DNA of 64,000 bases from Rikenellaceae bacterium (GTDB lineage: Bacteria > Bacteroidota > Bacteroidia > Bacteroidales > Rikenellaceae): positions 27,891 to 91,890 of the forward strand of contig SUZL01000005.1 of NCBI GenBank assembly GCA_015059925.1, given 5' to 3'. The notes under the pieces were generated by a model. The model made no database searches. It was not told the DNA's origin and saw only the letters and a list, made by a program, of their open reading frames with translations. This document shows positions 31,133-51,856 of this stretch, piece after piece. Numbering within the stretch: the stretch's first letter is position 1; each line of letters starts with the position of its first letter. A program made the position numbers and the translations under genes.

Positions 31133-33634
31133 TTATAAACTATTATCAAATCTCACAACGGTTATTCCCGCACCGCCTCGATCGGCGTGCTCGTCGGCCA
31201 CCGAGGCCACCTGCGGGATCGTTCTTAGGTAACGGCGAATCTCCTCCTTCAGAGCTCCCGTACCCTTGCCGTGCAGGATGGTAACTCCACCCACGCCCAC
31301 CATCAGCGCATCATCGACCAAGTCCTGCACCACCTCCAGCGCCTCCACAGCGCGCATACCGCGCACATCGACGCTATCGCGGAAGTTCAGCTTGCGCGAC
31401 GATATATCCACCGAGAGCACCGTTCGCGGCTGCACGGGCTTCACGGCCTTCTTGTACTCGGCGTTCGACACTACGGTGAGCTTATCCTTCTCGACCATCG
31501 TCAGTATCTGCCCGAATGCAACCTGCACCTTGCGTCCCTTGATGCTCTGCACCACGCCCGGCACCTCCTGTCCCGTGATGCGCACCTTCGCACCCACCTC
31601 GATCGGCTTGGGCGCAGGGGCCGCAACTGCCGCCTCATCCTGCTCCGCCTTCTGGCCGCGACGCTTCTTATCCTCGTCGCGTCGAGCCTTGCGGCGCATC
31701 AGTCGCTCCATCTCGCGCTCCACCTTCTCGCTGTCAAAGGCCGAATCGATGCTATCCACCGCCGCCTTGAAGTCATCCAACTCCTTACGCGCCAGACGTG
31801 TAAGCTCCTTCTCGGCCTGCGCCTCCTTGATCGTGCGTATCGTGTTCTCGATCTGACGATTAGCCTCCGCCACAAGCTCCTTAGCCTCGGCCTTGGCCTT
31901 CTGCAAAATCTCCTTGCGCTCCTCCTTGATGCGCGAGAGCTGCTCGGCATAACTCGTCTCCAGCTCCTCAACCTTACGATCCGTCAGACGTATGCGATCG
32001 CGCTTCTGCGACCAGTAACGCCTATCACGCGCAATCTCGCGCAGCTGACGTTCCAGATTGATATGGTCGCTACCCGCCTTGTCGCTCGCCGTGCGGATTA
32101 TATTCTCCGGCAGACCGATCTTGCGGGCTATCTCAATGGCAAACGAGCTTCCGGGCTTACCCTGCTCCAACTTAAAGAGCGGGCGGATGTTCTGCACATC
32201 GAACATCATCGCGCCGTTGGCAATGCCTTCCGTTCCCGTTGCATAATATTTAATGTTCGAGTAGTGCGTCGTAATCACGCCGTAGCAACCCCGCTCGAGC
32301 AGTCGCTCCAGAATCGCCTCGGCTATGGCACCACCAATCACAGGCTCCGTACCCGATCCGAACTCGTCTATCAAGACCAACGTACGATCCGATGCCGCCT
32401 GCAACATCGACTTCATATTCAGAAGGTGCGACGAATATGTCGAAAGATCGTTATCCATCGACTGCTCGTCGCCAATATCTATGCAGATGCTCTTGAATAC
32501 GGGCAGCTCACTCATCTGCGATGCCGTTACAGGGAATCCGCACTGGAACATATACTGCACCATACCCGTGGTCTTCAGACACACCGACTTTCCACCAGCA
32601 TTGGGGCCCGAGATCACCAGAATATGCTTCTCTCTGTCGAGCTGCATATCGAGCTTCACCAGCTCCTTCTTCTCGCGTCGCAGCGTCTGCGCCAACATCG
32701 GGTGAAACGCATCACGCAGCACCAACCTGTCATCGAGCGACACTACGGGCATACCCGCCCCATTCTCAATCGCCCAACGCGCCTTGGCCCTCACAGCATC
32801 CATCTCGGCCAGATATGCGCTCGCATCGGCAATCGGCTCGCGGTCAGGACGCAGCTCCTCGGTAAATTCGGTCAGCAGACGCACAATCTCCCTGCGCTCG
32901 GCATACTCCAACTCTTTGAGTTGGTTATTCAGCTCGACCACCTCCACAGGCTCGACGTAGAACGTCTTACCCGTCGCCGATTCGTCGTGAATAAATCCGC
33001 TCAACTTACGTTTATTTCCGGCCGATACGGGGATTACGGCCCTACCGTCGCGTATTGAGATCATCGCATCGGCATCGACGATTCCAGCCCTCTTGGCATT
33101 ATTCAGCACCTGATGCAGTCGCTTCGACACCTGCCCCTCGTGTTCGCGTATCGAGCGGCGTATTGCCACCAACTCGGGCGAAGCGCCATCGCGTATCTGC
33201 CCCTCGTCGTCGATAAGCTGGTTTATGCGGCGTATCACATCGGGGAATATGCAGACGCTCTCACAACGCCTCCTCAGGCGCGGATACTGATCCTTCGAGC
33301 GGCTCGACACAAACCCCACCATATTACCTACGGCCGTCAGCGCCTGACGCAATACGGCCACCTCCTCGGTCGAGAGGAACGCCCCCTCCACGCCAATCTT
33401 CGCTATCACGGCCTCCATATCGGGGTACTCGTCGCGTGGTGCGTCGGGGTCGAGCATCAGCAGCGTGCGCATCTCATCTGCAGTCTGCTGTCGTCGCTCG
33501 ATCTCCTCGCGCGAGGTAGAAAAACCCTCCCCCGCGATAATCTCGCGCGCAGCCTGCATCGAACACATCGCCACCACCTGCTCACGCAGTCGGTCAAATC
33601 CTATCTTCTGTTCAAAATTTGCTGGATAAATCAT
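31133..33634 (-). CDS. mutS2: MutS2 family protein with C-terminal Smr domain
   Basis: SGPNAGGKS, STYSSH, DEFGSGTEP, TTHY, HGKGTG. Confidence 0.95.
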   Translation of the reverse strand: MIYPANFEQKIGFDRLREQVVAMCSMQAAREIIAGEGFSTSREEIERRQQTADEMRTLLMLDPDAPRDEYPDMEAVIAKIGVEGAFLSTEEVAVLRQALTAVGNMVGFVSSRSKDQYPRLRRRCESVCIFPDVIRRINQLIDDEGQIRDGASPELVAIRRSIREHEGQVSKRLHQVLNNAKRAGIVDADAMISIRDGRAVIPVSAGNKRKLSGFIHDESATGKTFYVEPVEVVELNNQLKELEYAERREIVRLLTEFTEELRPDREPIADASAYLAEMDAVRAKARWAIENGAGMPVVSLDDRLVLRDAFHPMLAQTLRREKKELVKLDMQLDREKHILVISGPNAGGKSVCLKTTGMVQYMFQCGFPVTASQMSELPVFKSICIDIGDEQSMDNDLSTYSSHLLNMKSMLQAASDRTLVLIDEFGSGTEPVIGGAIAEAILERLLERGCYGVITTHYSNIKYYATGTEGIANGAMMFDVQNIRPLFKLEQGKPGSSFAIEIARKIGLPENIIRTASDKAGSDHINLERQLREIARDRRYWSQKRDRIRLTDRKVEELETSYAEQLSRIKEERKEILQKAKAEAKELVAEANRQIENTIRTIKEAQAEKELTRLARKELDDFKAAVDSIDSAFDSEKVEREMERLMRRKARRDEDKKRRGQKAEQDEAAVAAPAPKPIEVGAKVRITGQEVPGVVQSIKGRKVQVAFGQILTMVEKDKLTVVSNAEYKKAVKPVQPRTVLSVDISSRKLNFRDSVDVRGMRAVEALEVVQDLVDDALMVGVGGVTILHGKGTGALKEEIRRYLRTIPQVASVADEHADRGGAGITVVRFDNSL

Positions 33635-33643
33635 CTTGAGCGA

Positions 33644-34675
33644 CTATTGACCTTTCTCCATCTCTTTAAGTTGCTGTTCGTGCTGCTTCTCGGCCAACTC
33701 ATCTGCTCGCTTTATCGCCTTCTTCTCGGCCTTTGCCTTTGCCTTCTCGACCTTCTTTATGGGGTTAGCGCCGAAAACCGAGATATTGATATAACGGTGA
33801 GGATTCTCCTTCAAATCCTCCAACAACGTCGAGAGGTTGTTGCTTGCCGCCGAGAGGTTGTCATACAGCGCCGCATCGCCCAGAAGCTTACCCACGCTAC
33901 CATTCTCATCCTTTGCCGCAGCGAGCAGCTCATTCAGATTATTGACCACGCCATCCAGTTCGGCCACGATTTCCGTCTTTGCCAAATCCTCCGAGAGCTT
34001 GTGCATATTATCGATTATGCCACCCACCTCGTCGGCGTTGTCGCCCAGACTCTGCGAGAATCGGCTCAGCGAAGCGAGCGCCTGCTCCAGATGCTCACGC
34101 TCGTTCTTAAGCATCGTATTGACGTTTCCCGTCAGGCCATCCATATTGGCCATTATCGAGGTCAGACTCGCCGTATTAGCCTCAATCAGAGTATTCACAC
34201 CCTCCAACGTCTTGCTCAAGCCATCCACCACGGCCGAGATCTTCTCATTGATAAAATCTATCTCCGTTGTAGCCATCTCCATAATATCCGTTCCCGAGGC
34301 CGCCTCTACCGTACCGCGCCTCTCGACATACTCCGTCGCATCGCCGAGCACGATCTCAATGGCCTTGCCGCCCATAATTCCGTCAGAGTAGATACGCGCC
34401 TTTGAATCTACGGGGATCTTGTATCGCTTATCGACCGTAAACTCCACCTCAACACCCTTGGCGCTCTCATCGAGCGTAACCTTGGCCACAGCACCAACGG
34501 CCACGCCGCTGATTGTAACGTGCGAAGCGGGCTGAATACCGCCCACCTGAGTGTAGTAGGCATAATAAGTGTTGCTGGAGCTAAAGACATCCGCCCCCTT
34601 CAGATAGCGTATCACGCCCCATCCGACGAGCAACACGACAATTGCAAAAATTCCAACTTTTACTTCTTTTTTCAT
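33644..34675 (-). CDS. MlaD/MCE family protein
   Basis: N-terminal TM helix, MCE domain (VTISGVAVGAV, IPVDSKARI, GGKAIEI), helical C-terminus. Confidence 0.9.
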   Translation of the reverse strand: MKKEVKVGIFAIVVLLVGWGVIRYLKGADVFSSSNTYYAYYTQVGGIQPASHVTISGVAVGAVAKVTLDESAKGVEVEFTVDKRYKIPVDSKARIYSDGIMGGKAIEIVLGDATEYVERRGTVEAASGTDIMEMATTEIDFINEKISAVVDGLSKTLEGVNTLIEANTASLTSIMANMDGLTGNVNTMLKNEREHLEQALASLSRFSQSLGDNADEVGGIIDNMHKLSEDLAKTEIVAELDGVVNNLNELLAAAKDENGSVGKLLGDAALYDNLSAASNNLSTLLEDLKENPHRYINISVFGANPIKKVEKAKAKAEKKAIKRADELAEKQHEQQLKEMEKGQ

Positions 34676-34697
34676 ATCATTTGTTTTTATTTCTTAC

Positions 34698-35900
34698 TTA
34701 TCTAACGATGCGCCCATCCTTAAAGTGTACCACAAACGCATCCTTAAAGGTGCGTCTTATGGTCGAAAGGTTACGTTGCGCCTCCTCGCGGCTCTCATAC
34801 TCGCCGTAGCAGTATTTGTACTTCAGCACGCCACTGCCCTCATAGCACTCCACCTTACCGCGATAACTCTTGAACTGCGAATCATTTCCGCTCACTCGCT
34901 TATCCGACGCCAGCAGCTGAATGGCATAGCCCTCCGCGCTCTTCGCCGCCTGCTCCTTTACGGTCTCTTTTGCCGTCGCCTTCGCAGCTACGCCCTCCGC
35001 CTTCTTTGCGTCCGCCTTCTTCGGCTGCTCCGAGGCAGATTCCGCCTTCTTCGGCTCCTCCTTTGCCACCGTCTGCTCCTCGGCCTTCGACTCCACGATT
35101 ACGGTCTCCACGCCCGCCATACGGTTGATATGGCCGACATACTCCTTCACCGCGTCGCACAACATACGGGCATAAGCCGCCTGCCCCTTCTCCGAGCTCA
35201 TATACGCCAACTCCGCCTTATTGGTCATAAAGCCCAACTCGGTCAATACACTCGGCATATCCGTAGCGTACAACACCTTGAGCAACTGACGCTTGACGGG
35301 ACGCACCGTGCGCCCGCCCTTCTGGTAGTGCGACTGCATTATTCGCGCCATCATCTCGCTATACTCGCCGTATGTAAACTGCAGATTCTGGATGTAAGCC
35401 CTCACCATCGCCGCCGTATTCTCATCCGACATATCGATCAACTCCTCCTTATTGTTGTCATAAAGGGCACTCTCGTTGTATCGCGTCTCCTTCTCGCTCT
35501 CGCCCATAATCAGCGTCTCGGCACCCCTTACGGTTGTCGTTCGCGCCGCATTGGCGTGGATCGAGATGAAGAAGTCGCCCTCGGCCTTGTTCGCAATGTT
35601 TGCTCGCGCCGTAAGATCCTCATTCAGAGTCTTTCCCAACGCCGTATCGGTCTTTCGCGTATAGACCACCTTTATGGTCGGCAGCTCCTTCTCGATCAGC
35701 GCTCCGAGCTTCAGCGCAACGGCCAGATTTATATCCTTCTCCTTCACTCCGCCATACACCGCACCAGGAAAAGCCTTTCCACCGTGACCGGCATCGATGA
35801 CAATAACTCGCACCCCCGCTCCGTTATCTTGAGCGAGCAGCGGAGTGGTGCCGAGCGCCACACCAAAAAGCAAAAGCAAACAGAAGAGTATATGTTTCAT
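34698..35900 (-). CDS. N-acetylmuramoyl-L-alanine amidase (Amidase_3 + SPOR-like)
   Basis: IDAGHGG, EKDINL, FISIHANA and SVLTELGF motifs. Confidence 0.93.
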   Translation of the reverse strand: MKHILFCLLLLFGVALGTTPLLAQDNGAGVRVIVIDAGHGGKAFPGAVYGGVKEKDINLAVALKLGALIEKELPTIKVVYTRKTDTALGKTLNEDLTARANIANKAEGDFFISIHANAARTTTVRGAETLIMGESEKETRYNESALYDNNKEELIDMSDENTAAMVRAYIQNLQFTYGEYSEMMARIMQSHYQKGGRTVRPVKRQLLKVLYATDMPSVLTELGFMTNKAELAYMSSEKGQAAYARMLCDAVKEYVGHINRMAGVETVIVESKAEEQTVAKEEPKKAESASEQPKKADAKKAEGVAAKATAKETVKEQAAKSAEGYAIQLLASDKRVSGNDSQFKSYRGKVECYEGSGVLKYKYCYGEYESREEAQRNLSTIRRTFKDAFVVHFKDGRIVR

Positions 35901-35943
35901 ATAAAATCTGCCAAAAAATTAGCGGTAATAGATAAAAAAACGC

Positions 35944-36025
35944 TATATTTGTCGGTTAAAACACCTTTCCCGCGCGAGAGGAAAAGCTCCCATCGGGCGG
36001 TTTTGCCGACTTGTCGGCAAAGGTA
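35944..36025. promoter_or_regulatory. Face-to-face divergent promoters for lptD and amidase-mce
   Basis: TATATTTG (+) at 35944-35951; TACCTTTG (-) at 36018-36025. Confidence 0.55.
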
Positions 36026-36043
36026 CAAAAAATTATTGACATT

Positions 36044-38839
36044 TTGGGTAAATTAAGAGTTAAATATCTCCTTTCGGTAGCTGTTGTGTTGCTTCTTGTG
36101 CAGTTCGTCTTCGGATTGCCCTCCACGCAGCGCGTTCTCACCCCCCAGCGTCCCGCCATCGAGCAGGATACGCTGTCGCGCGACAGCGTACGTCGTGCGC
36201 GCCAACGTCGTGAGGCCGCAGGCGCAGCGCAGCGTGGCGCAGCACCCGACTCGACCACGCGCACCGATCTGGCCGACACCATCGCCCGCATTGCAGGCAT
36301 CGAGCGCGACTCGCTCGACGCTCTGGGCGACACGCTCGTCCAGCGTCGCCGCGCAGGAGCAGGTCTCGACCGTATGATCAAGGGCCACGCCACCGACTCG
36401 CTCTACTACGATATGCGCAAGAAGATGGTCTATATCTACGAGCAGGGCGATGTGAGCTACGACAATATGAATCTGAAGGCCGACTACATCAACATCGACC
36501 TCGACACCAAGAACATCTTCGCCTACGGTAAGGCCGACACCCTCGAAGGCGAAGCCACCACTACGCGCCCGCTGTTCACTCAGGGCTCGACCTCGCTCAA
36601 TATGGACACCATCACCTACAACATCGACAGCCAGCGCGCCAAGATCAAGGGTATCGCCACGCAGCAGGGTGACGGATGGCTCGTAGGCCAGAACGTGAAG
36701 CGTATGGAGGACAACTCGATCCACATCGCCGATGGTATGTACACCACCTGCGACGAGACCGACCACCCCCACTTCTACTACTATATGTCCAAGGCGAAGG
36801 TCATCCCGGGCGACAAGGGCAAGGTGATTATGGGCGGCGGCCACCTCGTCATCGAGGATGTCGATATTCCGTTCCTCGGTCTTCCCGAGGGCTTCTTCCC
36901 CTTGAGCAGCGGTCCCAAGTCGGGTATCCTGATGCCGACCTACGGCGAGGAGGCTCGACGCGGATTCTTTATGCGCGGTCTGGGTTACTACTTCACCCTG
37001 AGCGACTATATGGATCTCACGCTCACGGGCGGCTTCTACACGCTCGGCTCGTGGGAGGCGCAGGCCATCTCGCGCTACGTTAAGCGATACAAGTATTCGG
37101 GCAACCTGAATTTCGACTACGCCAGCATCCGCTCGGGCGACAAGGGCGACCCCGACTTTGTCAAGCAGAACACCTTCCGTCTGCAGTGGACCCACTCGCA
37201 AGACCCGAAGGCCAACCCCGGTTCGACCTTCTCGGCCTCGGTGAACCTTTCATCGAGCGGTTACAGCCGCTACTCGGCCACCAATCTCGACGATATGCTT
37301 GCCACGCAGACCAACTCTTCGATCTCCTACTCGAAGAATTGGGCCGGCACACCCTTCTCGTTCTCGATGAATATGGCCGTTTCGCAGAACTCGCAGACGC
37401 AGGCCATCTCGGTTACCTTGCCCACGATCTCGTTCAACGTCTCGAAGTTCAACCCCCTAAAGCGCAAGGTGCGCATCGGCAAGGAGCGCTGGTACGAGAA
37501 GATCTCGATGAGCTACTCGGCCAAGATGACCAACTCTGTTCAGGCCAAGGAGAGCGACATCTTCTCATCCGAAACGCTGAAGAATATGCGCAACGGTATC
37601 CAGCACACGATCCCCGTTCAGGCGCAGTTCAACCTCTTCAACTTCATCAACGTCACCCCCAACATCAACTACACCGAGCGTTGGTACTTCCGTCGTGATC
37701 GCCAGCAGTGGAACCCCGAGACCAACGCAGTCGATAAGCTCGACCCCGAGTACGGCTTCTACCGCCTCTACAACTACAACGCGGGCATCTCGCTCTCGAC
37801 CATCCTCTACGGTCAGTGGCAGGTGCGCGAGAAGTATAAGGATTTCAAGTTGCAGGCCTTGCGCCACACCATCACCCCCTCGATCTCGATGAGCTACGCC
37901 CCCGACTTCAGCAATCAGAAGTACGGCTACTACGAGACCATCCAGAACAACGACTCGGGTGGCACGATGACCTACTCGCCCTACTCTAACAACGCCTACG
38001 GCATCCCCTCATCGGGCCAGAGCGCATCGCTCACGTTCAACATCTCGCAGAGTCTGGAGGCCAAGGTACTGAGCAAGCGCGACTCTACGGGTGTGCGCAA
38101 GATCAAACTCATCGACGATTTGTCGATCAGCGGATCGTATAACTTCCTCGCCGACTCGATGAAGCTCTCGAACATATCGCTCTCGCTGCGTTCTACCATC
38201 TCGCAGAAGTTCGGCATCCAGCTTCGCGCCACACTCGACCCCTACGAGGTAACCCCCGAGGGCCGACGCATCAACAAGCTCACTTGGGCACGCGGTAATC
38301 TGGGCCGTATCGTCAATACGGGCTGGAGCTTCGGCTATACGTTCCAGTCGCGCGAGTCGTCGCAGCCGGCCATCAACGACATCAACAGCATCCCGCCCGA
38401 GTACACCAATCCCTTCTACGACCCCTACGGCACGATGGATCCCAACCTCAGGCGACAGTATATGGCCAAGGCCTACTACGACTTCTCGCTGCCGTGGAAC
38501 TTCGGATTCAACTACAACATCAACTATAGCCTTGCCTATGTGAACAACGGCACGACGGGATATAAACGCAACATCACGCAAACCATCGGCTTCAACGGAA
38601 GCCTAACCTTCTCGAAGAAGATGGCGGCCACCATCAGCGGCGGATATGACATATCGCAACGCAAGCTGACCACCTCGTCGATCAGCATCACGCGCGATCT
38701 GCACTGTTGGCAGATGTCCTTCTCGTGGATTCCCTTCGGACACTACAAGAGCTGGAGCTTCCACATCGGTGTGAAGGCCGCTTCGCTGCAGGATCTGAAA
38801 TACGACAAGAGCCAGTCGATGTACGATAACTTCTACTAA
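36044..38839 (+). CDS. lptD: Putative LPS assembly protein LptD (Bacteroidota type)
   Basis: Beta-jellyroll N-terminus (YTTCD), GGFYTLGSW, QWTHSQD, RDLHCWQM. No ATG in frame near the start, so likely TTG start at 36044 (alternative 36011). Confidence 0.85.
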   Translation: MGKLRVKYLLSVAVVLLLVQFVFGLPSTQRVLTPQRPAIEQDTLSRDSVRRARQRREAAGAAQRGAAPDSTTRTDLADTIARIAGIERDSLDALGDTLVQRRRAGAGLDRMIKGHATDSLYYDMRKKMVYIYEQGDVSYDNMNLKADYINIDLDTKNIFAYGKADTLEGEATTTRPLFTQGSTSLNMDTITYNIDSQRAKIKGIATQQGDGWLVGQNVKRMEDNSIHIADGMYTTCDETDHPHFYYYMSKAKVIPGDKGKVIMGGGHLVIEDVDIPFLGLPEGFFPLSSGPKSGILMPTYGEEARRGFFMRGLGYYFTLSDYMDLTLTGGFYTLGSWEAQAISRYVKRYKYSGNLNFDYASIRSGDKGDPDFVKQNTFRLQWTHSQDPKANPGSTFSASVNLSSSGYSRYSATNLDDMLATQTNSSISYSKNWAGTPFSFSMNMAVSQNSQTQAISVTLPTISFNVSKFNPLKRKVRIGKERWYEKISMSYSAKMTNSVQAKESDIFSSETLKNMRNGIQHTIPVQAQFNLFNFINVTPNINYTERWYFRRDRQQWNPETNAVDKLDPEYGFYRLYNYNAGISLSTILYGQWQVREKYKDFKLQALRHTITPSISMSYAPDFSNQKYGYYETIQNNDSGGTMTYSPYSNNAYGIPSSGQSASLTFNISQSLEAKVLSKRDSTGVRKIKLIDDLSISGSYNFLADSMKLSNISLSLRSTISQKFGIQLRATLDPYEVTPEGRRINKLTWARGNLGRIVNTGWSFGYTFQSRESSQPAINDINSIPPEYTNPFYDPYGTMDPNLRRQYMAKAYYDFSLPWNFGFNYNINYSLAYVNNGTTGYKRNITQTIGFNGSLTFSKKMAATISGGYDISQRKLTTSSISITRDLHCWQMSFSWIPFGHYKSWSFHIGVKAASLQDLKYDKSQSMYDNFY

Positions 38840-38850
38840 ACCCTATAACG

Positions 38851-39741
38851 ATGAAACGACTTCTCTCTCTGGCTATGACCATAGCTATGCTATTTGTTGT
38901 GGCCATCCCCGCATCGGCCAAGAAGTATGGCCAGACGCTGCGCATTTTGGCCATCGGCAACTCCTTCTCGGACGACGGTATGGAGCACCTGCCCGCCCTG
39001 CTGAAGAATCTGGGCGTGGAGGATGTCGAGCTGGCACGCCTCTTCGTCGGCGGTTGCACACTCGAGCGCCATATGAAGTTCTACAATGCCGAGGAGAGCG
39101 CCTACGAGTTCTACCACTCCGAGGCTGGCCGAAACGAGTGGGTTAAGGCCGAGGAGAAATACTCAATCCAGCAGGCTCTCGCTATGGGTGAGTGGGACAT
39201 AATCACTATGCAGCAGGCCTCGGGCGTATCTGGCCTCTACGAGAGCTACGTTCCGTATCTTGAGCAGCTTATCGCCACCGTTCGCAAGGCGCAGCCTCAA
39301 GCCGAGCTCGTCTGGCATATGACGTGGGCCTACTCTACTGACAGCACCCACGGCGAGTACCCCAACTACGACCGCGACCAGCAGAAGATGTATCGCGCCA
39401 TCACCGAGTGCGTACACAATCTGAAGAGAGATTATAAATCTATCAAAGCCATCATCCCTTCGGGAACGGCTATCCAGTCGCTGCGCGAGTCGGCGATCAA
39501 CAACTCCCCCAAGGATTTCACACGCGACGGCTACCATATGGATCTCGGCGCGGGCCGCTACGCATTGGCTTGCACTTGGTACGAGAAGCTGATCCGCCCC
39601 TATACCCACCGCTCGATGATGGGCAACACGCTGCGCCTCGATCTGGGCGACGTGAAGGTCGATGACCAGACAGCACCATACCTGCAAAAGGCTGCGCGTC
39701 AGGCTGTAAAACATCCGTTCAAGGTCCGAGCCGTAAAATAA
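38851..39741 (+). CDS. DUF4886 / SGNH-like secreted protein
   Basis: Signal peptide, IGNSFS, QQASG, WAY and DGYH motifs. Confidence 0.8.
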   Translation: MKRLLSLAMTIAMLFVVAIPASAKKYGQTLRILAIGNSFSDDGMEHLPALLKNLGVEDVELARLFVGGCTLERHMKFYNAEESAYEFYHSEAGRNEWVKAEEKYSIQQALAMGEWDIITMQQASGVSGLYESYVPYLEQLIATVRKAQPQAELVWHMTWAYSTDSTHGEYPNYDRDQQKMYRAITECVHNLKRDYKSIKAIIPSGTAIQSLRESAINNSPKDFTRDGYHMDLGAGRYALACTWYEKLIRPYTHRSMMGNTLRLDLGDVKVDDQTAPYLQKAARQAVKHPFKVRAVK

Positions 39742-39765
39742 ACCCTACACCTATATATAATAGCA

Positions 39766-41643
39766 ATGGCCAGCTTCCTACAAGTCGAGAACATCAGCAA
39801 GTCGTACGGCGACAAAACACTCTTTCGCAACATCTCGTTCAACATCAACGAGGGCGACAAGATAGCCCTTATTGCCCCCAACGGCACGGGCAAGAGTTCG
39901 CTGCTGAAGATTCTCGCGGGCGTTGATTCGTCGGATCGCGGTGGCGAGATTAAGTTTATGAAGGACATCAAGGTCGCCTTCCTCGACCAGATCATCGACT
40001 TCAATCCGCAGAACACCCTCTTCGACGAGGTCTATTCGCGTCTGGGCTCCACCTACAACGTCATCCGCTCCTACGAGCAGGCCATCGCCTCGGGCGACGA
40101 GAAGCGAATCGAACGCGCAATGGCAGCGATGGATGCCGCCGATGGCTGGAGCGTCGAGCAGCGCATCAAGCAGGTGCTCACGTCGATGAAGCTCACGCGT
40201 CTGGATCAGCCTATGGGCGAGCTGTCGGGTGGCGAGGCCAAGCGTGCCGCCATAGCACTTATGTTGTTGCAGCAGGCCGACTTTCTGGTGATGGACGAGC
40301 CCACCAACCACCTCGATATCGACGTTATCGAGTACTTGGAGAGCTACCTCCAGAAGTCGCGTTGCACGCTGCTGATGGTTACGCACGACCGCTACTTTCT
40401 GGACAACGTCTGCAACACCATCTTCGAATTGGATCGCGGCGAGCTATTCACCTATCGCGGCAACTACGCCGAATTTTTGGAGAAGCGCGAGGAGCGCTAC
40501 ACAAATATGCAGGCCAACATCGACAAGGCCCGCAACCTCCTGCGTCGTGAATTGGAGTGGATTCGCGCCACTCCGCAGGCCCGCACGGGCAAGGCGCGTT
40601 ACCGCGTCAATGCCTTCTACGATCTAAAGGATCGCGCCTCGGTGTCGCTTGCGCGCAAGGATCTCACGATTGACGTTGCTACGTCGCGCCTTGGCGGAAA
40701 GATTATCGACTGCTACGACCTCTCTTTGAGTTTTGGCGAGCGCGTGATGCTCGACGGTTTCTCGTATAAGTTCTCGCGCTACGAACGTGTCGGCATCGTA
40801 GGAAAGAATGGCGTAGGCAAGAGCACATTCCTTAACCTTATGACAGGCAATCTATTAGCCGACTCAGGCCGAATCGAGCGCGGCGAGACGCTCCGCATCG
40901 GTTACTACCGCCAGAGCGGCATCAACTTCAAGCCGGGCCAGACCGTGCTGGAGATCGTGCAGGATATTGCCGAGACGGTCGAGGCGGCCGACGGACACAG
41001 CGTATCGGCCACCACGTTCCTCAACCGATTCCTCTTCCCGAACGAGTCGCTCAACAAGCGCGTGGAGATATTGAGCGGTGGCGAGCAGCGACGTCTCTAC
41101 CTGCTGACTGTTCTGATGCGCAACCCCAACTTCCTGATTCTCGACGAGCCGACGAACGACCTTGACATCCTGACACTCAACGTCTTGGAGGAGTATCTCC
41201 AGTCGTTCAAGGGGTGCCTTTTGATCGTCTCGCACGACCGCTATTTCCTCGACAAGACCGTCGATCACCTCTTCATCTTCCGCGAGGGCGGTCGCGTGAA
41301 GGATTTTGTGGGACAGTATAGCGAGTACCGCGAATACATCCGCGAGCAGGAGGCCGAGGAAGCCCGCCAAGCCAAGATCGCAGCCGAGAAGGCGCAAAAG
41401 TCGAAGCCTCAAGCAGTTACAACCCCATCACGTCGCAAGCTATCGTACAAGGAGCAGCGCGAGCTGGAGCAGTTGGAACAAGAAATCCCGCAGCTTGAGC
41501 AGGAGCGTAAGTCGCTGGAAGAGAGCCTCTCGTCGGGTACGCTCACGCACGAGGAGCTGACGGCAGCAGCCGCACGAATTGGCGAGTTGATCGATATGAT
41601 TGGCGAGAAGGAGATGCGCTGGCTGGAGCTTAGCGAGATATGA
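39766..41643 (+). CDS. ABC-F family ATPase (Uup-like)
   Basis: Two ABC domains (NGTGKS/LSGGE/DEPTN; NGVGKS/LSGGE/DEPTN) and C-terminal coiled coil KLSYKEQRE. Confidence 0.93.
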   Translation: MASFLQVENISKSYGDKTLFRNISFNINEGDKIALIAPNGTGKSSLLKILAGVDSSDRGGEIKFMKDIKVAFLDQIIDFNPQNTLFDEVYSRLGSTYNVIRSYEQAIASGDEKRIERAMAAMDAADGWSVEQRIKQVLTSMKLTRLDQPMGELSGGEAKRAAIALMLLQQADFLVMDEPTNHLDIDVIEYLESYLQKSRCTLLMVTHDRYFLDNVCNTIFELDRGELFTYRGNYAEFLEKREERYTNMQANIDKARNLLRRELEWIRATPQARTGKARYRVNAFYDLKDRASVSLARKDLTIDVATSRLGGKIIDCYDLSLSFGERVMLDGFSYKFSRYERVGIVGKNGVGKSTFLNLMTGNLLADSGRIERGETLRIGYYRQSGINFKPGQTVLEIVQDIAETVEAADGHSVSATTFLNRFLFPNESLNKRVEILSGGEQRRLYLLTVLMRNPNFLILDEPTNDLDILTLNVLEEYLQSFKGCLLIVSHDRYFLDKTVDHLFIFREGGRVKDFVGQYSEYREYIREQEAEEARQAKIAAEKAQKSKPQAVTTPSRRKLSYKEQRELEQLEQEIPQLEQERKSLEESLSSGTLTHEELTAAAARIGELIDMIGEKEMRWLELSEI

Positions 41644-41659
41644 TAAACGATTGATTACT

Positions 41660-42649
41660 ATGCAGTTCCGCACCAGAATAGAGATAAAACCTTTCGAGCA
41701 GAAGATCGACCATAGCAGTCGCATCCTCTCGCTCGGATCGTGCTTTGCAACGAGCGTTGCCGAGCGTCTGAAGCGTGCGAAATTCGACGTAACCGCCTCA
41801 CCCACAGGCATTCTCTTCAATCCCGAATCGATAGCGGCGGCAATCGAGCGATTCGATGCCGTAAGTCGTTCAGACAGAGGAAGTTTGCCATCGGCCGAGG
41901 ATTTATGCTACGGCAATGGGCGATACTTCTCTTTCGACTTCCACTCCGACTTCTCGCATTCGGATGCAAATCAAGCACTTACGCAGATGCGCGAGGCCGT
42001 AGAGGCGGGCGCAAAGGCTGTGACAGAAGCTGACACAATCATAATCACATTTGGTACGGCGTTCGTCTATCGCCTCAGGCAAAATGGCGAGGTGGTGGCC
42101 AACTGCCACAAGCAGCCGCAGGCCTATTTTGTGAAAGAGATGTTGAGCGTGGAGGAGATCGCAGCGCGATATAAGGCATTGATCAACGGCATATTAGCCG
42201 ACAAACAAATAATTTTCACGCTCAGCCCTGTACGCCACTTGGGCGATGGGCTGGAGCAAAATTCGCTCAGCAAATCGACGGCGAGAGTGGCTATTGATTC
42301 AATTGTCAGAAGTTGTCACAACGCACACTACTTTCCATCGTATGAGATCCTCGTGGATGAGTTGCGCGACTACCGTTTCTATGCCGACGATATGGCCCAT
42401 CCCGCGAGGGTGGCGATCGACTACATCTGGCAACGCTTCGGCGAGGCGGCGTTCGGTATCGAGACTCGCACGCTAAACGAAAAAATAGAAAAGATAATCC
42501 GCGCAGCCGAGCATCGACCATTCAACGGCCAAAGCGAGGAGCATCGGAATTTCTGCCGCAGGATGATGGCCGAGATCGAGGCACTCGAGAGGCAGCATCC
42601 GCAGCTTAAGTTCGAGCAGGAAAAAGCCACTTTTGGCACATATTTGTAA
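41660..42649 (+). CDS. GSCFA domain-containing protein
   Basis: LGSCFA motif, NPESI, TLSPVRH, YFPSYE, DELRDYRFY; start MQFRT at 41660. Confidence 0.9.
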   Translation: MQFRTRIEIKPFEQKIDHSSRILSLGSCFATSVAERLKRAKFDVTASPTGILFNPESIAAAIERFDAVSRSDRGSLPSAEDLCYGNGRYFSFDFHSDFSHSDANQALTQMREAVEAGAKAVTEADTIIITFGTAFVYRLRQNGEVVANCHKQPQAYFVKEMLSVEEIAARYKALINGILADKQIIFTLSPVRHLGDGLEQNSLSKSTARVAIDSIVRSCHNAHYFPSYEILVDELRDYRFYADDMAHPARVAIDYIWQRFGEAAFGIETRTLNEKIEKIIRAAEHRPFNGQSEEHRNFCRRMMAEIEALERQHPQLKFEQEKATFGTYL

Positions 42650-42676
42650 ATTAATTCGTATTTTTACCGCACAATA

Positions 42677-44320
42677 TTGAGAATTATGACTCGCACTACT
42701 AAATACATAACCCTAACTCTCGCTCTGCTAACGCTTTGCGCCATCGCCGCCTCGGCCCAGACAAAGCCGCGACTGATGGTAAACATCGTCGTCAGCTCGA
42801 TGCGTGCCGACGATCTGGAGCGTTACGCCGAGAACTTCACAAACAACGGATTTAGACGTCTTGCGACGGGCGGACACAATTTCACCAGCGCCTCGATAGA
42901 CTATATGCAGACCACAACACCCGCGTCCTTATCGACAATCGCAACGGGCGCTATGCCCTCGACGCACGGCGTGGTGGCGGATCGCTGGTATGACCACGTT
43001 TCCAACAAGTTAGTGGTGCTGATCGATGACCAGAAGGAGCAGAGCGTCAATTACAGTGGCGGCTCGGGCTCATACTCGCCCCGAAACCTGGTGGCAGAGA
43101 CGCTATCGGATGCGCTGGCGCGTCAGAGCGCCGAGAGCCACATCGCAACAATCGCCACCGAGCCCCTATCGGCTATCGTGACGGCCGGCCACGCGGGTGA
43201 GGTCTATTGGATGGAGACGTTGCAGACGGCGTGGACAACATCGTCGTACTACACCAAGGAGCTGCCGAAGTGGATTGCCGACTACAACCGCTCGGAGCTT
43301 AACGCAGCACACATCATCAAGCGCTGGACACCGCTGCTGCAGTACGACAACTACCGCAACACGCAGGTGTCGGTGATCGAGGGTTTGCAGAGCCGCAAGA
43401 ATAAGCGAATAGAGTTGATTCAGGCATCGGAGTCGGCTACGCGCAGCAGTATCGACCCGCACGATCCATACGAGCAGATGTGCTTCACACCAGCAGGCAA
43501 CAGCGCCGTATTGGCATTTGCCAAGCAGGTGATCACGCGCAACGAGATGGGACAGGACGAGGTGCCCGATATGCTCAACATCGTACTCGATGCGCCGCGA
43601 ATGATCAGCGGTCGTTTCGGGCCCGAGTCGGTAGAATATGAGGATATGTTGTATCGTTTGGACCGCGATTTGGAGGATTTCATCACATTCCTGATGGCGC
43701 AGGTGGTGGACCCCTCGCAGGTGGTCATCACGCTCACGTCGGATCACGGCACAAGCCCCTCGTTCAACTCGCCCGGGCGCGAGCACGAGCGGTTCAATGT
43801 GCGTCAGGCCGAGGTGATAATCAACGCCTTCATCGGTGCGCAGCACGGCAACGGAGAGTGGGTGCTGGGGTATGTCGATCGTGGCATATACCTCAACCAC
43901 AATCTAATATACGAGAAAAATCTCTCGCTGGCGGAGATGCAGTACGACGTGGCGACCTTCGTGATGCAGTTGCGTGGCGTATCGCACGCCATATCGTCCG
44001 AGGCGATGCGAAACAGCTACTTCGGTAGCGGATACGGACGCAAGATACAGAATGGATTTTATCCCCGTCGCTCGGGCGATGTGATCGTCAATCTGATGCC
44101 CGACTGGATTGAGGAGAGCGATGAGGTGCGCTCGGCATCGGGATCGATGTATCGCTACGACACGCAGGTGCCGCTGTTGATCTATGGCGGTGGAGTGAAG
44201 GCCGCAGAGCGCGGTGAGCAGGTCGATTTGACCTCGCTCGCAACAACACAGGCGCAGATGCTCGGCATCGTAAGCCCATCGGCAGCCGAAGGGGAGGAGT
44301 TAATGCTAATTTACGAATAA
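42677..44320 (+). CDS. Alkaline phosphatase superfamily (PafA-like) protein with degenerate active site
   Basis: Fold motifs GFRRL, ATGAMPSTHG, TSDHG, RSGDV are kept but several metal ligands are lost. Start probably 42686. Confidence 0.8.
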   Translation: MRIMTRTTKYITLTLALLTLCAIAASAQTKPRLMVNIVVSSMRADDLERYAENFTNNGFRRLATGGHNFTSASIDYMQTTTPASLSTIATGAMPSTHGVVADRWYDHVSNKLVVLIDDQKEQSVNYSGGSGSYSPRNLVAETLSDALARQSAESHIATIATEPLSAIVTAGHAGEVYWMETLQTAWTTSSYYTKELPKWIADYNRSELNAAHIIKRWTPLLQYDNYRNTQVSVIEGLQSRKNKRIELIQASESATRSSIDPHDPYEQMCFTPAGNSAVLAFAKQVITRNEMGQDEVPDMLNIVLDAPRMISGRFGPESVEYEDMLYRLDRDLEDFITFLMAQVVDPSQVVITLTSDHGTSPSFNSPGREHERFNVRQAEVIINAFIGAQHGNGEWVLGYVDRGIYLNHNLIYEKNLSLAEMQYDVATFVMQLRGVSHAISSEAMRNSYFGSGYGRKIQNGFYPRRSGDVIVNLMPDWIEESDEVRSASGSMYRYDTQVPLLIYGGGVKAAERGEQVDLTSLATTQAQMLGIVSPSAAEGEELMLIYE

Positions 44321-44323
44321 GAT

Positions 44324-44740
44324 ATGAAAGATCAGATTCAGGAGCAGATAATCGAGGAGTTTGCCATATTTGACGAGTGGCTGGACAAGTACGACTATCT
44401 GATCGAACTCAGCGACACGCTGCCCGCAATCGAGGCCGAGCATCGAACAGACGCCTACGCCATAAAGGGTTGTCAGTCGCGTGTGTGGGTGGATGCACGA
44501 CTGGAGGAGGGTAAGGTTTATTACTCGGCCGACAGCGATGCAATCATCACGAAGGGTATCATCGCACTGCTCGTCAGGGTGATGAACGGCCGCACGCCGC
44601 AGGAGATCGTCGAGATGGAGCCATACTTCATCGACGCAATCGGATTGGGCGAAAACCTATCGCCCACGCGAAGCAACGGACTTGTGGCGATGATCAAACA
44701 GATGAAAATGTACGCACTGGCATTTGCCAGCAAAGCATAA
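44324..44740 (+). CDS. sufE: Cysteine desulfuration protein SufE
   Basis: IKGCQSRVW, DSDAIITKG and LSPTRSNG motifs. Confidence 0.95.
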   Translation: MKDQIQEQIIEEFAIFDEWLDKYDYLIELSDTLPAIEAEHRTDAYAIKGCQSRVWVDARLEEGKVYYSADSDAIITKGIIALLVRVMNGRTPQEIVEMEPYFIDAIGLGENLSPTRSNGLVAMIKQMKMYALAFASKA

Positions 44741-44744
44741 TGAG

Positions 44745-45068
44745 ATGATGACACCGGAAGAGATTTTGAGAGTGGAGCACGATATTGTGCTCACGCTTAA
44801 GAATATATACGATCCCGAGATTCCCGTAAACATCTACGATCTGGGGCTTATCTACGAGATCGACTTCGACCCCGAGGGGGTGGCTAATATCCGTATGACG
44901 CTGACGGCACCCAACTGCCCGATGGCCGACATACTCGTTGACGACATCAACACGCAGGTGAAGAAGATCGCAGGTGTGGAGTCGGTCAATATAATCCTTA
45001 CATTCGAGCCGCCTTGGGACAAGAGTATGATGAGCGAGGAGGCTCTACTGGAGCTTAACCTTCTGTAA
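44745..45068 (+). CDS. DUF59 / SufT-like Fe-S cluster assembly factor
   Basis: DPEIPVNIYDLGLIY, TLTAPNCP, PPWDKSMMS. Start at ATG about 44742-44748 rather than 44724. Confidence 0.9.
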   Translation: MMTPEEILRVEHDIVLTLKNIYDPEIPVNIYDLGLIYEIDFDPEGVANIRMTLTAPNCPMADILVDDINTQVKKIAGVESVNIILTFEPPWDKSMMSEEALLELNLL

Positions 45069-45072
45069 GAGA

Positions 45073-46050
45073 ATGGATCAGAGCAATCATTCAGAACAAA
45101 GAAAACGTACCCTAAATAGGCTGCAGGCCGGAGCCTCGTACTTCGGCTGCGGGGGTTATTTGGCTTCGCTCGAGCGGTTGCAACGATTGCAGATATACAA
45201 CACATTAGGTTTCGAGCGACTCGAGCGCAAGAACCGCGACATAATGGAGCTATACGCCGAAAGTGGCGAGAATTGGCCACAGACGTTCTATATGATGCTC
45301 CTGCGCACGATGGGCGGCGTGGATAACAAGGAGGCTTTTCTGGAGCTGGCCAGAGCCGTTCCGTATGCTGCCATCCTGCGCGAGAAACAGTCGCCGCAAA
45401 ACATTGAGGCTATGCTCATTGGGGCATCGGGACTATTGGATTTATACCCGCACGATGAGTACATCTTAAACCTCAAACGCAACTTCGAGTATCTCGCGGC
45501 AAAGTACTCCATCGTACAGATGGAGGCGCAGGCGTGGCGACTCAAAAAGATCTATCCCAACAACCATCCCATACTGCGACTTTCGCAGATAACAACATTC
45601 CTTGCGCACACGACCGACATAATGGACAGGATGTTGATGTGCTCCTCGGCCGAGGATGTGCATCGGCTCTTCTCGTCGGAGACGCAACCCTACTGGCTGA
45701 CGCACTACACGCCCGCCTCGGAGTCGCGCACGGTGGCAAAGCGCATCGGGCAGACGAAGAGTGATCTTTTAGCAATAAACCTCGTGGTACAGATTATGTT
45801 CGCTTACAGCGCATACGTCGGTAGCGAGAAGTTGCGCTCGCGCGCCCTGTCGCTACTGGAGGATCTGCCCGCCGAGAAGAACTCGATCATAGCGCAATGG
45901 AACAGCTACGGGCCACTGGCTCGCACGGCCTTCGACAGTCAGGCGCTGCTGCAACTCTCGTTCGAATATTGCCGCGACAGGCGTTGCGAGGAGTGCATCG
46001 TGGGGCGAAGAATACTCCGCAGGGTCAAAGATATGGAAGGCGAGGAGTAA
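45073..46050 (+). CDS. DUF2851 family protein (N-terminally short)
   Basis: NWPQTFY, EAMLIGASGLL, PNNHPILRL, INLVV, SQALLQL and C-terminal C..RRCEEC. Confidence 0.75.
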   Translation: MDQSNHSEQRKRTLNRLQAGASYFGCGGYLASLERLQRLQIYNTLGFERLERKNRDIMELYAESGENWPQTFYMMLLRTMGGVDNKEAFLELARAVPYAAILREKQSPQNIEAMLIGASGLLDLYPHDEYILNLKRNFEYLAAKYSIVQMEAQAWRLKKIYPNNHPILRLSQITTFLAHTTDIMDRMLMCSSAEDVHRLFSSETQPYWLTHYTPASESRTVAKRIGQTKSDLLAINLVVQIMFAYSAYVGSEKLRSRALSLLEDLPAEKNSIIAQWNSYGPLARTAFDSQALLQLSFEYCRDRRCEECIVGRRILRRVKDMEGEE

Positions 46051-46053
46051 TAT

Positions 46054-46084
46054 TTTGCTATTTCGCAATAAATCACTATATTTG
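46054..46084 (+). promoter_or_regulatory. Sigma-A promoter for secA
   Basis: TTTG-N19-TATATTTG, a perfect consensus. Confidence 0.78.
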
Positions 46085-46123
46085 TGGATTGATTTAGCCA
46101 AACGAAAATAAAAATACAACGAT

Positions 46124-49417
<3,294 letters not shown>

Positions 49418-49441
49418 TTCAGGGCTTTAAGAGACAGAATT

Positions 49442-50632
49442 ATGAAACGTATCCTGATTCGATGTGCTATGATCGTGTGTGCCACGCTCTGCGTTTGCGG
49501 CATACAGGCACAGCAGAAAAAGCAGAAATACGATGTAGCGGCGTTCCTATACCCCGCCTATGCCTCAGACGATGTGCGTCTGCGCCCCTTCTGGCCGATG
49601 GGAATAGGCGAATGGGAGACGGTGATGACGATGCAGCAGCGTAACCCCGGACACTACTGGGATCGAAAACCTCTGTGGGGATACATAAACGAGGCCGACC
49701 CGAAGGTTATGGAGATGGAGATCGAGCAGGCGACAAAGCACGGCGTGAATGTATTCATCTTCGACTGGTATTGGTACGACGGCCGCCCATTTATGGAGAC
49801 TACGCTGAACAACGGTTTTCTCAAGGCCGAGAATGTCGAGAAGATGCAGTTCTACTTGATGTGGGCAAATCACGATGTGCTCAATCTGTGGGATACGCGC
49901 CTTGCACGATTCAACGAGGATAACGTCATCTGGCAGGGAAAGGTGGATCGCGAGGAGTTTGAGAAGATATGCCGCCGCAACATCGAGAAGTATTTCAAGC
50001 ATCCGCAGTACTACAAGATTGACGGTAAACCCGTATTTATGATTTACGACCTGCCCAACCTGATCAACGGTCTGGGTGGTGTAGAGCAGACGGCCGAGGC
50101 GCTGGAGTGGTTCCGCCGCGAGGTGCGCAAGGCGGGATTTCCAGATCTGGAACTTCAGTTTGCGATGTGGTCGATAAATCTGAATTACAGCGGCTTGGAC
50201 GCCTCGAAGAGCGACAATCCGCAGGATGATTTCATCCGTAAGTTGGGATTTGATTCTTCGACACACTATCAGTTTGTGCACTTCACCGATGTGAATCGCG
50301 AATACGCCGACATTGCGAAGGATGCAGAGGCCGAGTGGGAGAGAATCGAGAAGGAGTACTCGTTCAAATACTACCCCCACGTCAGTGTCGGATGGGACAA
50401 TAGCCCGCGTACGGTGCATAGCGCAGTGGTGAAGAACAACACGCCCGAGGCATTTGCCGAGGCGCTGCGTCGAGCCAAAGCCTATGTGGACAAGCACGCC
50501 GAGCTTCAGCCTCTGATTACGATCAACAGCTGGAACGAGTGGACCGAGACGAGTTATCTGCAGCCGTGCAACATATATGGATATGGGTATCTGGAGGCTG
50601 TGAAGAGGGTGTTTATTGACGAAGTAGAGTAA
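49442..50632 (+). CDS. Secreted glycoside hydrolase, GH99-like/WbsX family
   Basis: Signal peptide, PLWGY, FIFDWYWY, MWANH, GWDNSPR, NSWNEWTE. Confidence 0.8.
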   Translation: MKRILIRCAMIVCATLCVCGIQAQQKKQKYDVAAFLYPAYASDDVRLRPFWPMGIGEWETVMTMQQRNPGHYWDRKPLWGYINEADPKVMEMEIEQATKHGVNVFIFDWYWYDGRPFMETTLNNGFLKAENVEKMQFYLMWANHDVLNLWDTRLARFNEDNVIWQGKVDREEFEKICRRNIEKYFKHPQYYKIDGKPVFMIYDLPNLINGLGGVEQTAEALEWFRREVRKAGFPDLELQFAMWSINLNYSGLDASKSDNPQDDFIRKLGFDSSTHYQFVHFTDVNREYADIAKDAEAEWERIEKEYSFKYYPHVSVGWDNSPRTVHSAVVKNNTPEAFAEALRRAKAYVDKHAELQPLITINSWNEWTETSYLQPCNIYGYGYLEAVKRVFIDEVE

Positions 50633-50638
50633 ATTACA

Positions 50639-51073: not shown

Positions 51074-51122
51074 GCCCTTGCGTGTGATATGGAGGAGTGT
51101 ATGGAAGACATATATAGATAAG

Positions 51123-51149
51123 AAAGGCTACCCGATGGGTAGCCTTTTT
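51123..51149. terminator. Bidirectional intrinsic terminator
   Basis: AAAGGCTACCC-GAT-GGGTAGCCTTT between convergent genes. Confidence 0.85.
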
Positions 51150-51152
51150 AAT

Positions 51153-51766: not shown

Positions 51767-51856
51767 CACTTTTTTCATTATTAGACAGGCTCCTTAATTT
51801 TGAATCATTAGCTCTTTGCATCATTACTGTTTTTTGCACTCCCCCCCCTCCTTAGG

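Follow-up and report, generated by a model that had tools for sequence, protein, structure and literature searches.

Where does replication start in a chromosome whose strand composition switches, with the polarity of an origin, among tightly packed genes? Bacterial origins are seen as discrete, DnaA-box-rich intergenic elements, the position of which changes only by rearrangement. We analyzed a 64,000-nucleotide stretch of a Rikenellaceae chromosome (the window), in which a reading made from the sequence only had located a GC-skew inversion of origin polarity at 41600-43000, proposing a non-canonical, dnaA-unlinked oriC or else an inversion or an assembly junction. Including the extension of the window into contigs of the same species, the chromosome span read was ~73 kb.

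The GC-skew inversion was confirmed, and it is both strong and sharp. Counted over all sites, GC skew is below zero in 1-39 kb (mean -0.17) and above zero from 43 kb onward (mean +0.08), and the cumulative minimum within the window falls at 41,281. At four-fold degenerate codon sites the skew of the + strand passes from about -0.29 to about +0.22 across the switch; taken gene by gene, it is -0.2 to -0.4 in nearly all left-arm genes and +0.07 to +0.47 in right-arm genes on either coding strand, that is, skew follows the arm and not the gene's own orientation, and the + strand turns from C-rich to G-rich, the origin type of polarity. A two-arm model with a coding-strand term (rL -0.30, rR +0.22, t -0.05) gave a chi-square drop of 300, and the likelihood ratio of the step was 161, compared with a maximum of 47 among 500 block permutations; both the step and its independence of the coding strand are thus direct observations. 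Plain GC3 skew shows a seemingly gradual change across the site because of two-fold purine-ending codons. The step was positioned at 40,947-43,066 (95% posterior, G/C four-fold sites), at 41,061-41,544 under a four-base model, and at 40.9-43.1 kb when relatives were used as a site-matched baseline; this placement overlaps the 41600-43000 of the sequence-only reading. The sequence-only reading is likewise borne out in the inversion and its polarity, in a left side that is C-rich and a right side that is G-rich whichever strand codes, and in a GSCFA gene that is about neutral (four-fold skew -0.08 +/- 0.11).

The left arm (1..40946) has a C-rich, lagging-strand type + strand and carries ~74% of its genes on the - strand, the genes of this arm all being housekeeping (RNase G, HU, DsbD, MutL, DnaJ, GrpE, Alr-MurF, MutS2, MlaD, amidase, LptD, DUF4886 and most of ABC-F); same-species contigs extend it to -4.9 kb. 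The + strand of the right arm (43067..64000) is G- and A-rich, of leading-strand type, and holds ~68% of the genes, which include SufE, FeS_assembly_P, DUF2851, SecA, WbsX, dCMP deaminase, SSB, LpxK, M23 peptidase, IspD, LuxS and IlvD; this arm extends to 67.8 kb in same-species contigs. In all, the asymmetry covers at least 46 kb on the left side and at least 25 kb on the right side. Genes point outward on both arms (~70%), which fits origin polarity, and to that extent the reported shift of gene orientation stands; the flip itself, however, is at 35.9 kb and not at the skew switch. It falls in the divergent promoter gap of 185 bp that separates amidase from LptD (35901..36085), the sizeable non-coding stretch nearest to the switch, and from there a co-oriented gene run, LptD to dCMP deaminase, spans the switch with its transcription direction unchanged.

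The switch interval itself (40947..43066), which we read as the putative point of fork divergence, contains the 3' end of an ABC-F gene, a GSCFA gene and the 5' end of a phosphodiesterase gene. The ABC-F ATPase gene (39766..41643, + strand; Pfam ABC_tran x2, ABC_tran_Xtn and ABC_tran_CTD) has its 3' third inside the interval and, taken as a whole, behaves as a left-arm gene (four-fold skew -0.26). It is followed, after a gap of 16 bp (41644..41659) that is similarly short in relatives lacking the switch, by the intact GSCFA-family gene (41660..42649, + strand; full-length match to Pfam GSCFA, E = 3e-82), in which the substitution spectrum is already of right-arm type. The next gap, of 36 bp (42650..42685), is the AT-richest spot of the interval and carries, ahead of the phosphodiesterase gene, a conserved promoter-like sequence whose pattern recurs in relatives that lack the switch. 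The first clearly right-arm gene (four-fold skew +0.10) encodes a member of the Type I phosphodiesterase / nucleotide pyrophosphatase family (42686..44320, + strand; Pfam Phosphodiest).

None of the usual origin features was found at this place. The gene dnaA is absent from the window and there are no perfect DnaA boxes in its 64 kb; no DnaA-box cluster (TTATCCACA-like) occurs at the switch, the interval (2.2 kb) having one site with 1 mismatch and two with 2 mismatches, a density equal to background. The sole 3-box cluster in the window (16,127-16,369) is intragenic and lies 25 kb away from the switch, and the 185-bp gap between amidase and LptD is devoid of DnaA boxes. Within the interval we detected no iteron-like repeats, no long AT-rich element (AT peaks at 77% in 40 bp and at 69% in 100 bp), no intergenic stretch above 36 bp and no non-coding region of ~200-1000 bp with an AT-rich unwinding element; there are no tRNA genes, repeats or Rfam matches at the switch, and no plasmid-type rep genes or mobile-element genes near it, all genes being housekeeping. 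Since the flanking gaps measure only 16 and 36 bp, the switch lacks room for an oriC. The search agrees with what had been noted from the letters, namely no dnaA, no TTATCCACA cluster, and only short AT-rich gaps in place of a long DUE. Being unlinked to dnaA is not in itself non-canonical, as oriC is commonly far from dnaA in Bacteroidetes (PMC4755523); the unusual traits are the lack of room for an oriC, the lack of DnaA boxes, and a switch confined to the species of the window and its sister species.

The sister species (L001; 91% nucleotide identity to the window) is collinear and presents the same step, keeping the full skew amplitude after ~26% four-fold divergence, and this divergence is alike on both arms. 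Four-fold substitutions between window and L001 were polarised with outgroups that match the base shared by the two at only ~50% of four-fold sites (near saturation); on this basis, the per-site loss from the right-arm + strand was ~3.6 times faster for C than for G, while on the left arm G was lost ~2 times as fast as C. Under strict polarisation, G gains and losses on the right arm were 41:9, where pure decay, with the outgroup states taken into account, would give ~0.27:1; G is still being gained there and C is still being lost. The unpolarised C/T : A/G ratio also changes across the site, with an OR of 2.27 (p = 0.003) for + genes and of 2.95 (p = 0.035) for - genes, and the spectrum flips between ABC-F (C/T 24, A/G 16) and GSCFA (C/T 6, A/G 16). 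This opposite substitution pressure on the arms is directly observed, and it indicates that the two arms have been under opposite mutation pressure since the sister species split; a present-day divergence of replication direction is what these spectra suggest.

The order amidase|LptD-DUF4886-ABCF-GSCFA-PDE-...-LpxK is kept in more than 30 Alistipes species and, in relatives sampled further, reaches as far as the ilv/leu genes. Relatives with identical gene order showed no composition switch up to +30 kb; a step forced at GSCFA amounted to -0.018 +/- 0.008 across 49 other lineages, ~28 of them with the same ABC-F-GSCFA order, and the step in substitution spectrum was absent as well (OR 0.65-1.28 in 11 of 12 species pairs). 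Relatives that lack the switch have gaps of the same appearance on either side of GSCFA, both arms rank the nearest relatives in the same order, and coding-strand composition differs from that of the relatives' orthologues. Among the lineages compared, therefore, the switch is confined to the window species and its sister species, in which this state appears to be derived. As the relatives have no step in either composition or spectrum, an origin here needs a relocation without inserted DNA, or a very weak asymmetry in the relatives.

Several other explanations must be weighed. The earlier suggestions of an assembly junction or an inversion invited scrutiny of the reads across 41.6-43 kb and of synteny in relatives, and both were rejected. 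The stretch 40.5-46.5 kb is tiled by unitigs of three runs, the depth of which is even (over 64 kb a coverage slope of ~1-3% would be expected, less than the noise of unitig depth), with identical unitigs covering 40,509-42,392 and 42,366-45,046 at the same depth in the three runs; the locus recurs in at least 15 contigs that come from different samples, and the same arrangement is seen, by coordinates only, on a 778,711-bp same-species contig (JAZLND010000001.1, GSCFA at 588,023-589,012). The step is also present in contig L081, identical in sequence to the window and the sole same-species contig tested for it. A chimera of two related genomes, fused at a conserved gene, might be suspected in a window derived from a metagenome assembly, all the more at ABC-F, a conserved gene whose internal repeat gives branch "joints" in unitig graphs; given these unitigs and collinear contigs from independent assemblies, the same step in a separate species and the similar divergence from it on both arms, such a chimera is scarcely credible. 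An inversion or other rearrangement breakpoint fails as well: relatives are collinear across the switch, where there is no synteny break and no repeat or mobile element, the arms have opposite present-day substitution spectra, and an inversion cannot produce a coding-strand composition unlike that of the relatives' orthologues. For a replication terminus (dif region) the polarity is opposite and the genes diverge, and a genomic island border is excluded by a G+C of 0.54-0.57 on both sides and by the housekeeping content. The switch could also be a relic, with one arm imported from an oppositely replicated lineage, or an old rearrangement restored, and both arms now replicated in the same direction. 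The absent oriC element and the relatives having the same gene order without a switch would fit; decay, however, should cost the right arm G, which it gains, the sister species is still at full amplitude, and neither the shared nearest relatives nor the divergent coding-strand composition agree with this idea, which we judge extremely improbable.

A boundary of strand-asymmetric mutation not due to replication, for instance a domain-scale transcription or repair effect, might be invoked as no origin element was found, a fact that we do not count as positive support. It is very unlikely in view of the co-oriented run that crosses the switch, of genes on both strands tracking the arm, and of the length of the asymmetry on the two sides. 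Somewhat less remote, although still quite unlikely, is a canonical origin nearby, for example in the 185-bp amidase/LptD gap, with the boundary displaced by a recent recombination of LptD to ABC-F with a C-rich relative. Orientation does diverge at 35.9 kb, the relatives' LptD to ABC-F genes have four-fold skews of -0.1 to -0.3, and a recombination-like tract nearly identical to L001 at 44.8-45.8 kb tells that such exchange does occur at the locus. Yet since the split from L001 the C/T : A/G counts of LptD, DUF4886 and ABC-F are 72:41 versus 55:71 in the phosphodiesterase to SecA genes (p = 0.003), and per-site G and C loss rates differ too, so that at present LptD to ABC-F are subject to the pressure of the left arm; a close relative resembling a donor was not found for these three genes, and the gap has no boxes. 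As the switch point itself this gap is excluded, because the three genes stay at -0.28 (660 G/C four-fold sites) compared with +0.12 to +0.17 in same-strand right-arm genes. Finally, the forks may truly diverge here but at a secondary initiation site, an additional lineage-specific one or a fused-replicon origin, with a terminus-type switch and another origin elsewhere. A switch restricted to two species in a conserved gene block, a right arm documented no further than +26 kb, and its departure from compositional equilibrium, suggestive of a rather recent change, speak in favor; the lack of plasmid-type rep genes, iterons and mobile-element genes among housekeeping genes, and an amplitude that is full and similar on both arms, make this unlikely.

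On balance we think it probable that a working chromosomal replication origin lies at ~41-43 kb, where the forks of the Alistipes chromosome would part. Leftward of the switch the - strand would be leading and rightward the + strand, and replication-linked mutation bias would keep the leading strand G-rich, and here A-rich too; the asymmetry would be caused by replication direction, with initiation inside the ~2-kb interval. The claim of a non-canonical, dnaA-unlinked oriC thus holds in part: an origin survives the tests run, while lack of linkage to dnaA is normal and the oriC element was not found. With an origin-type switch but no recognisable origin sequence, the site where replication starts is probably of an unrecognised type; the initiating element would sit inside the ABC-F, GSCFA or phosphodiesterase gene or in the DNA between them, and would contain few consensus DnaA boxes. 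Either the origin would have moved into a conserved gene block without rearranging it, or the relatives would carry almost no replication-linked asymmetry. A recent relocation or a cryptic origin independent of classical DnaA boxes, starting within or between ordinary genes without a DnaA-box cluster or classical unwinding element and leaving local gene order unchanged, is a doubtful, tentative proposal.

Cases of DnaA-independent or box-poor initiation have weak or irregular skew, reduced genomes or mutant backgrounds; among them are oriK and constitutive stable DNA replication in rnhA mutants of E. coli, and some cyanobacteria. Blattabacterium is a Bacteroidota endosymbiont without dnaA (PMC2768785). 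By analogy, these may be precedents for initiation without a recognisable DnaA-box cluster, although the skew of the window is strong and clean and belongs to a free-living gut bacterium. With the Bacteroidota oriC predicted far from dnaA (DoriC/Ori-Finder) the window shares a GC-skew transition of origin polarity, no dnaA nearby and outward-pointing housekeeping genes; those origins, however, are discrete, non-coding and provided with several E. coli-type DnaA boxes, whereas the interval is filled with genes. The oriC of Prevotella intermedia OMA14 is far from dnaA and is a discrete non-coding region of 476 bp (PMC4755523), and that of Cytophaga hutchinsonii was confirmed by oriC plasmids, according to the passage of PMC3531139 that cites it. 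Switches made by intra-replichore inversions also show an abrupt change of skew sign and of dominant orientation, as at the window; one found in another Alistipes (L055; step -0.30/+0.24) looks like such a case, lying where synteny breaks and where tRNA genes and MITE-like repeats occur. The window switch differs in having no synteny break, repeats or tRNA, and in arms that appear to be under opposite mutation pressure today.

An origin-type strand switch has thus been pinned to ~2 kb of back-to-back genes without the usual origin features, in two sister species and not in many relatives of identical gene order. If whole-genome skew disagrees, the locus would serve as a caution that very strong statistics for a local origin-like switch need not make it the origin. 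If initiation really takes place here, origins could shift their position with no rearrangement, finders that rely on boxes would overlook origins of this type in gut Bacteroidota, and growth-rate estimates from metagenome coverage that assume a dnaA- or box-based origin would have the wrong anchor point.

The window comes from the chromosome of an uncultured Alistipes species (Rikenellaceae, Bacteroidota) recovered from animal faecal metagenomes; in the faecal runs X1-X6 this species reaches 35-45x. Its nearest species-representative genome is a yak-gut MAG, whose locus L001 (JAZRQX010000013.1) is 91.4% identical to the window at the DNA level and collinear across 31.6-54 kb, with a GSCFA protein 93% identical to ours; the identical GSCFA protein is present on 15 assembled contigs. 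The 778,711-bp NCBI contig JAZLND010000001.1 (assembly GCA_054273995.1) belongs to another strain of this species, at 97.8% nucleotide identity; it is collinear with the window, position x here corresponding to x + 546,364 there, and has GSCFA at 588,023-589,012. About 73 kb of genome was read in all, and GSCFA-based and IlvD-based scans for complete Alistipes genomes, meant to show where the locus lies with respect to dnaA, matched within Alistipes draft MAG contigs only. The annotated genes are housekeeping throughout, with some gene-content polymorphism: a WbsX-like glycosyltransferase gene (49,469-50,632) is missing in L001 and in several same-species contigs, and a SnoaL-like gene (51,153-51,617) in the 779-kb strain contig. 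Upstream of ilvD there is a 423-bp AT-rich non-coding region (60,614-61,036) in which a long hairpin precedes a T-run (about 60,930-61,010); it had zero Rfam matches, and its sequence suggests an ilv-leu operon leader or attenuator.

Over all sites, GC skew is below zero from 1 to 39 kb and above zero from 43 kb onward, the cumulative minimum within the window falling at 41,281. Four-fold degenerate sites were chosen so that mutation bias could be told apart from coding constraints; at these sites the plus-strand skew is mostly -0.2 to -0.4 in genes of the left arm and +0.07 to +0.47 in genes of the right arm, on both coding strands in each case. A regression with a single coding-strand term (t = -0.05) gave rL = -0.30 and rR = +0.22 for the two arms, and the step had a likelihood ratio of 161, the maximum among 500 block permutations being 47; the skew inversion of origin polarity that the sequence-only reading had noticed by hand counts is thus borne out. 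The step was positioned at 40,947-43,066 (95%), at 41,061-41,544 when all four bases were used, and at 40.9-43.1 kb with relatives as a site-matched baseline, and both arms extend in same-species contigs, to -4.9 kb and +67.8 kb. Plain GC3 skew showed a gradual 5-kb transition and an apparent switch in several relatives; both are artefacts of two-fold purine-ending codons together with the coding-strand effect, and both are gone at four-fold sites.

The leading strand is enriched in A as well as in G, a purine-type asymmetry of the kind known in Firmicutes. Between 43,100 and 63,000 the four-fold A:T frequencies are 0.19:0.13 in plus-strand genes and 0.22:0.09 in minus-strand genes, the G-rich strand being A-rich too, whereas in the left arm (2,000-41,400) the A/T asymmetry is much weaker. 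The most negative skew in the window belongs to a run of 4-5 minus-strand genes at 9,595-19,174, which codes for large DUF4493 / PCMD-domain proteins at a G+C of 0.43-0.45 vs 0.55 elsewhere and, judging from these sequence properties, may be an acquired surface-protein cluster.

The two arms are under opposite mutation pressures. About 26% of four-fold sites differ between the window and L001, and we polarised these differences using 20 more distant relatives. On the plus strand the right arm is gaining G and losing C: under strict polarisation its plus-strand genes showed 41 G gained against 9 lost and 52 C lost against 25 gained, while the left arm was near balance. Averaged over both gene orientations, C loss per site is about 3.6 times G loss on the plus strand of the right arm, and in the left arm G loss is about 2 times C loss. 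Unpolarised C/T:A/G differences also change between left and right, from 72:41 to 55:71 in plus-strand genes (p = 0.003) and from 26:66 to 6:45 in minus-strand genes (p = 0.035); gene by gene, the ABC-F gene (39,766-41,643, plus strand) is of the left type (24:16) and GSCFA (41,660-42,649, plus strand) already of the right type (6:16). A fading relic of a former asymmetry predicts, from the outgroup states at invariant G sites, G gains to losses of about 0.27:1, and was rejected given the 4.6:1 seen. The same substitutions reject an origin displaced to the 185-bp gap between the amidase and LptD genes (35,901-36,085), where gene orientation flips, because the genes from LptD to ABC-F are now under left-arm pressure. 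The nearest relatives are identical for genes of both arms, which gives no sign that one arm was imported.

One tract departs from the general level of divergence: at 44,800-45,800, FeS_assembly_P and the 5' portion of DUF2851 match L001 at 97.5-99.5% identity vs about 91% elsewhere, with a four-fold divergence of 0.09-0.11 vs 0.23-0.38. An embedded conserved element was rejected, because conservation of DUF2851 among other species is only 73-79% and the step interval does not include the tract; from the sequence comparison, recent recombination between the two species is likelier.

The sequence-only reading had offered an inversion or an assembly junction as alternatives to an origin, and neither survived. 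Unitigs of three independent runs cover 40.5-46.5 kb in identical, overlapping pieces of even depth, and a second species and many independent contigs have the same arrangement, contradicting a chimera. Several runs have joints in their unitig graphs that bypass about 913 bp of ABC-F (40,319-41,233); these correspond to the gene's two homologous ATPase domains or to sequence shared with other species, and not to a deletion here. As for an inversion breakpoint, order and orientation are identical in more than 30 Alistipes species: amidase (minus strand), then LptD-DUF4886-ABC-F-GSCFA-phosphodiesterase-SufE-FeS_assembly_P-DUF2851-SecA...SSB-LpxK; in relatives sampled that far it extends rightward by 30 kb, up to the ilv/leu genes. 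L002, L005 and L010 are examples of loci with this gene order. In these species GSCFA sits between gaps just as short, and the window carries no insertion. Moreover, the coding-strand composition of the window genes is unlike that of their orthologues, a difference that only substitutions, and not strand flipping, can produce. An island border is rejected by uniform G+C and gene content, and a terminus by the origin-type polarity and gene orientation.

Relatives other than the sister species do not share the switch. When a step was imposed at GSCFA, 49 other lineages gave a mean of -0.018 +/- 0.008, ilvD-centred loci of relatives showed no switch out to +30 kb, and the substitution spectrum across GSCFA was unchanged in 11 of 12 species pairs (OR 0.65-1.28), the pair L006/L008 alone hinting at a change (OR 2.0, p = 0.07). 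It follows that the switch is a derived state of the window's species and its sister, or else that the relatives are nearly without replication-linked asymmetry. Their apparent uniform skew term of about -0.1 was not relied on, since gene-specific codon bias may account for part of it. In relatives (loci L149-L155) C-ending codons are very strongly preferred in ilvC, its four-fold G/C skew being -0.5 to -0.8 there vs -0.03 in the window's species; in short loci, such gene-specific codon bias can mimic a uniform replication skew.

A step of equal strength is present in L055, a locus of a distant Alistipes MAG. It lies 0.9-2.5 kb upstream of the GSCFA gene there, at a point where synteny breaks and where two tRNA genes and MITE-like repeats are found. 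A 1.68-kb non-coding stretch of this locus (7,447-9,123) holds tRNA-Arg, tRNA-Leu, gene remnants and tandem TGTGAAT heptads, which reappear inverted 11 kb away (19,880-20,600). An independent GSCFA-adjacent switch was rejected for L055: its TGTGAATTG repeats are found again elsewhere in the locus, and on its left flank it lacks synteny with its own relatives. By its sequence organisation the L055 step is probably an inversion breakpoint mediated by the MITE-like repeats, and we consequently claim no general link between origin and GSCFA.

The absence of clear DnaA boxes, also remarked on in the sequence-only reading, was confirmed: the window contains no perfect box, and a scan allowing 0-2 mismatches found zero clusters at the switch and no origin-like cluster anywhere in the window. 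Its only three-site cluster of box-like matches (16,127-16,369, one mismatch each) is inside a minus-strand gene, on the C-rich strand, at a distance of 25 kb from the switch, and base composition probably produced it by chance; the left arm has a surplus of one-mismatch matches because the C-rich motif falls on the C-rich strand. The same scan of 80 related loci gave no origin-like cluster, and a single small three-box cluster in one locus (L024). At the switch, searches for repeats or iterons and for Rfam families and tRNA genes found none, the last two having zero matches across the window, and AT content peaks at 77% over 40 bp. Non-coding DNA in the step interval amounts to 16 bp (41,644-41,659) and 36 bp (42,650-42,685, up to the phosphodiesterase gene), the latter a promoter-like sequence kept in relatives. 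Described Bacteroidetes origins, in contrast, occupy discrete non-coding regions that carry several E. coli-type boxes, and they commonly lie far away from dnaA (PMC4755523; PMC3531139); no described Alistipes origin was found in the literature.

The composition step and the opposite pressures on its arms are direct observations, from which we infer that replication is the cause and where exactly initiation takes place, at about 41-43 kb. The likeliest reading, held with modest confidence, is fork divergence within this interval and hence a functioning origin of the chromosome. Lower in probability stand a secondary or non-global origin, an origin displaced to a nearby site, an asymmetry boundary of non-replicative cause, a relic and a chimera. 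The proposal of a non-canonical, dnaA-unlinked oriC is supported in part; a lack of linkage to dnaA is ordinary for the phylum. What is not ordinary is that a tightly mapped switch has no recognisable oriC and no initiating element in the sequence, and that it is restricted to a lineage within a conserved gene block.
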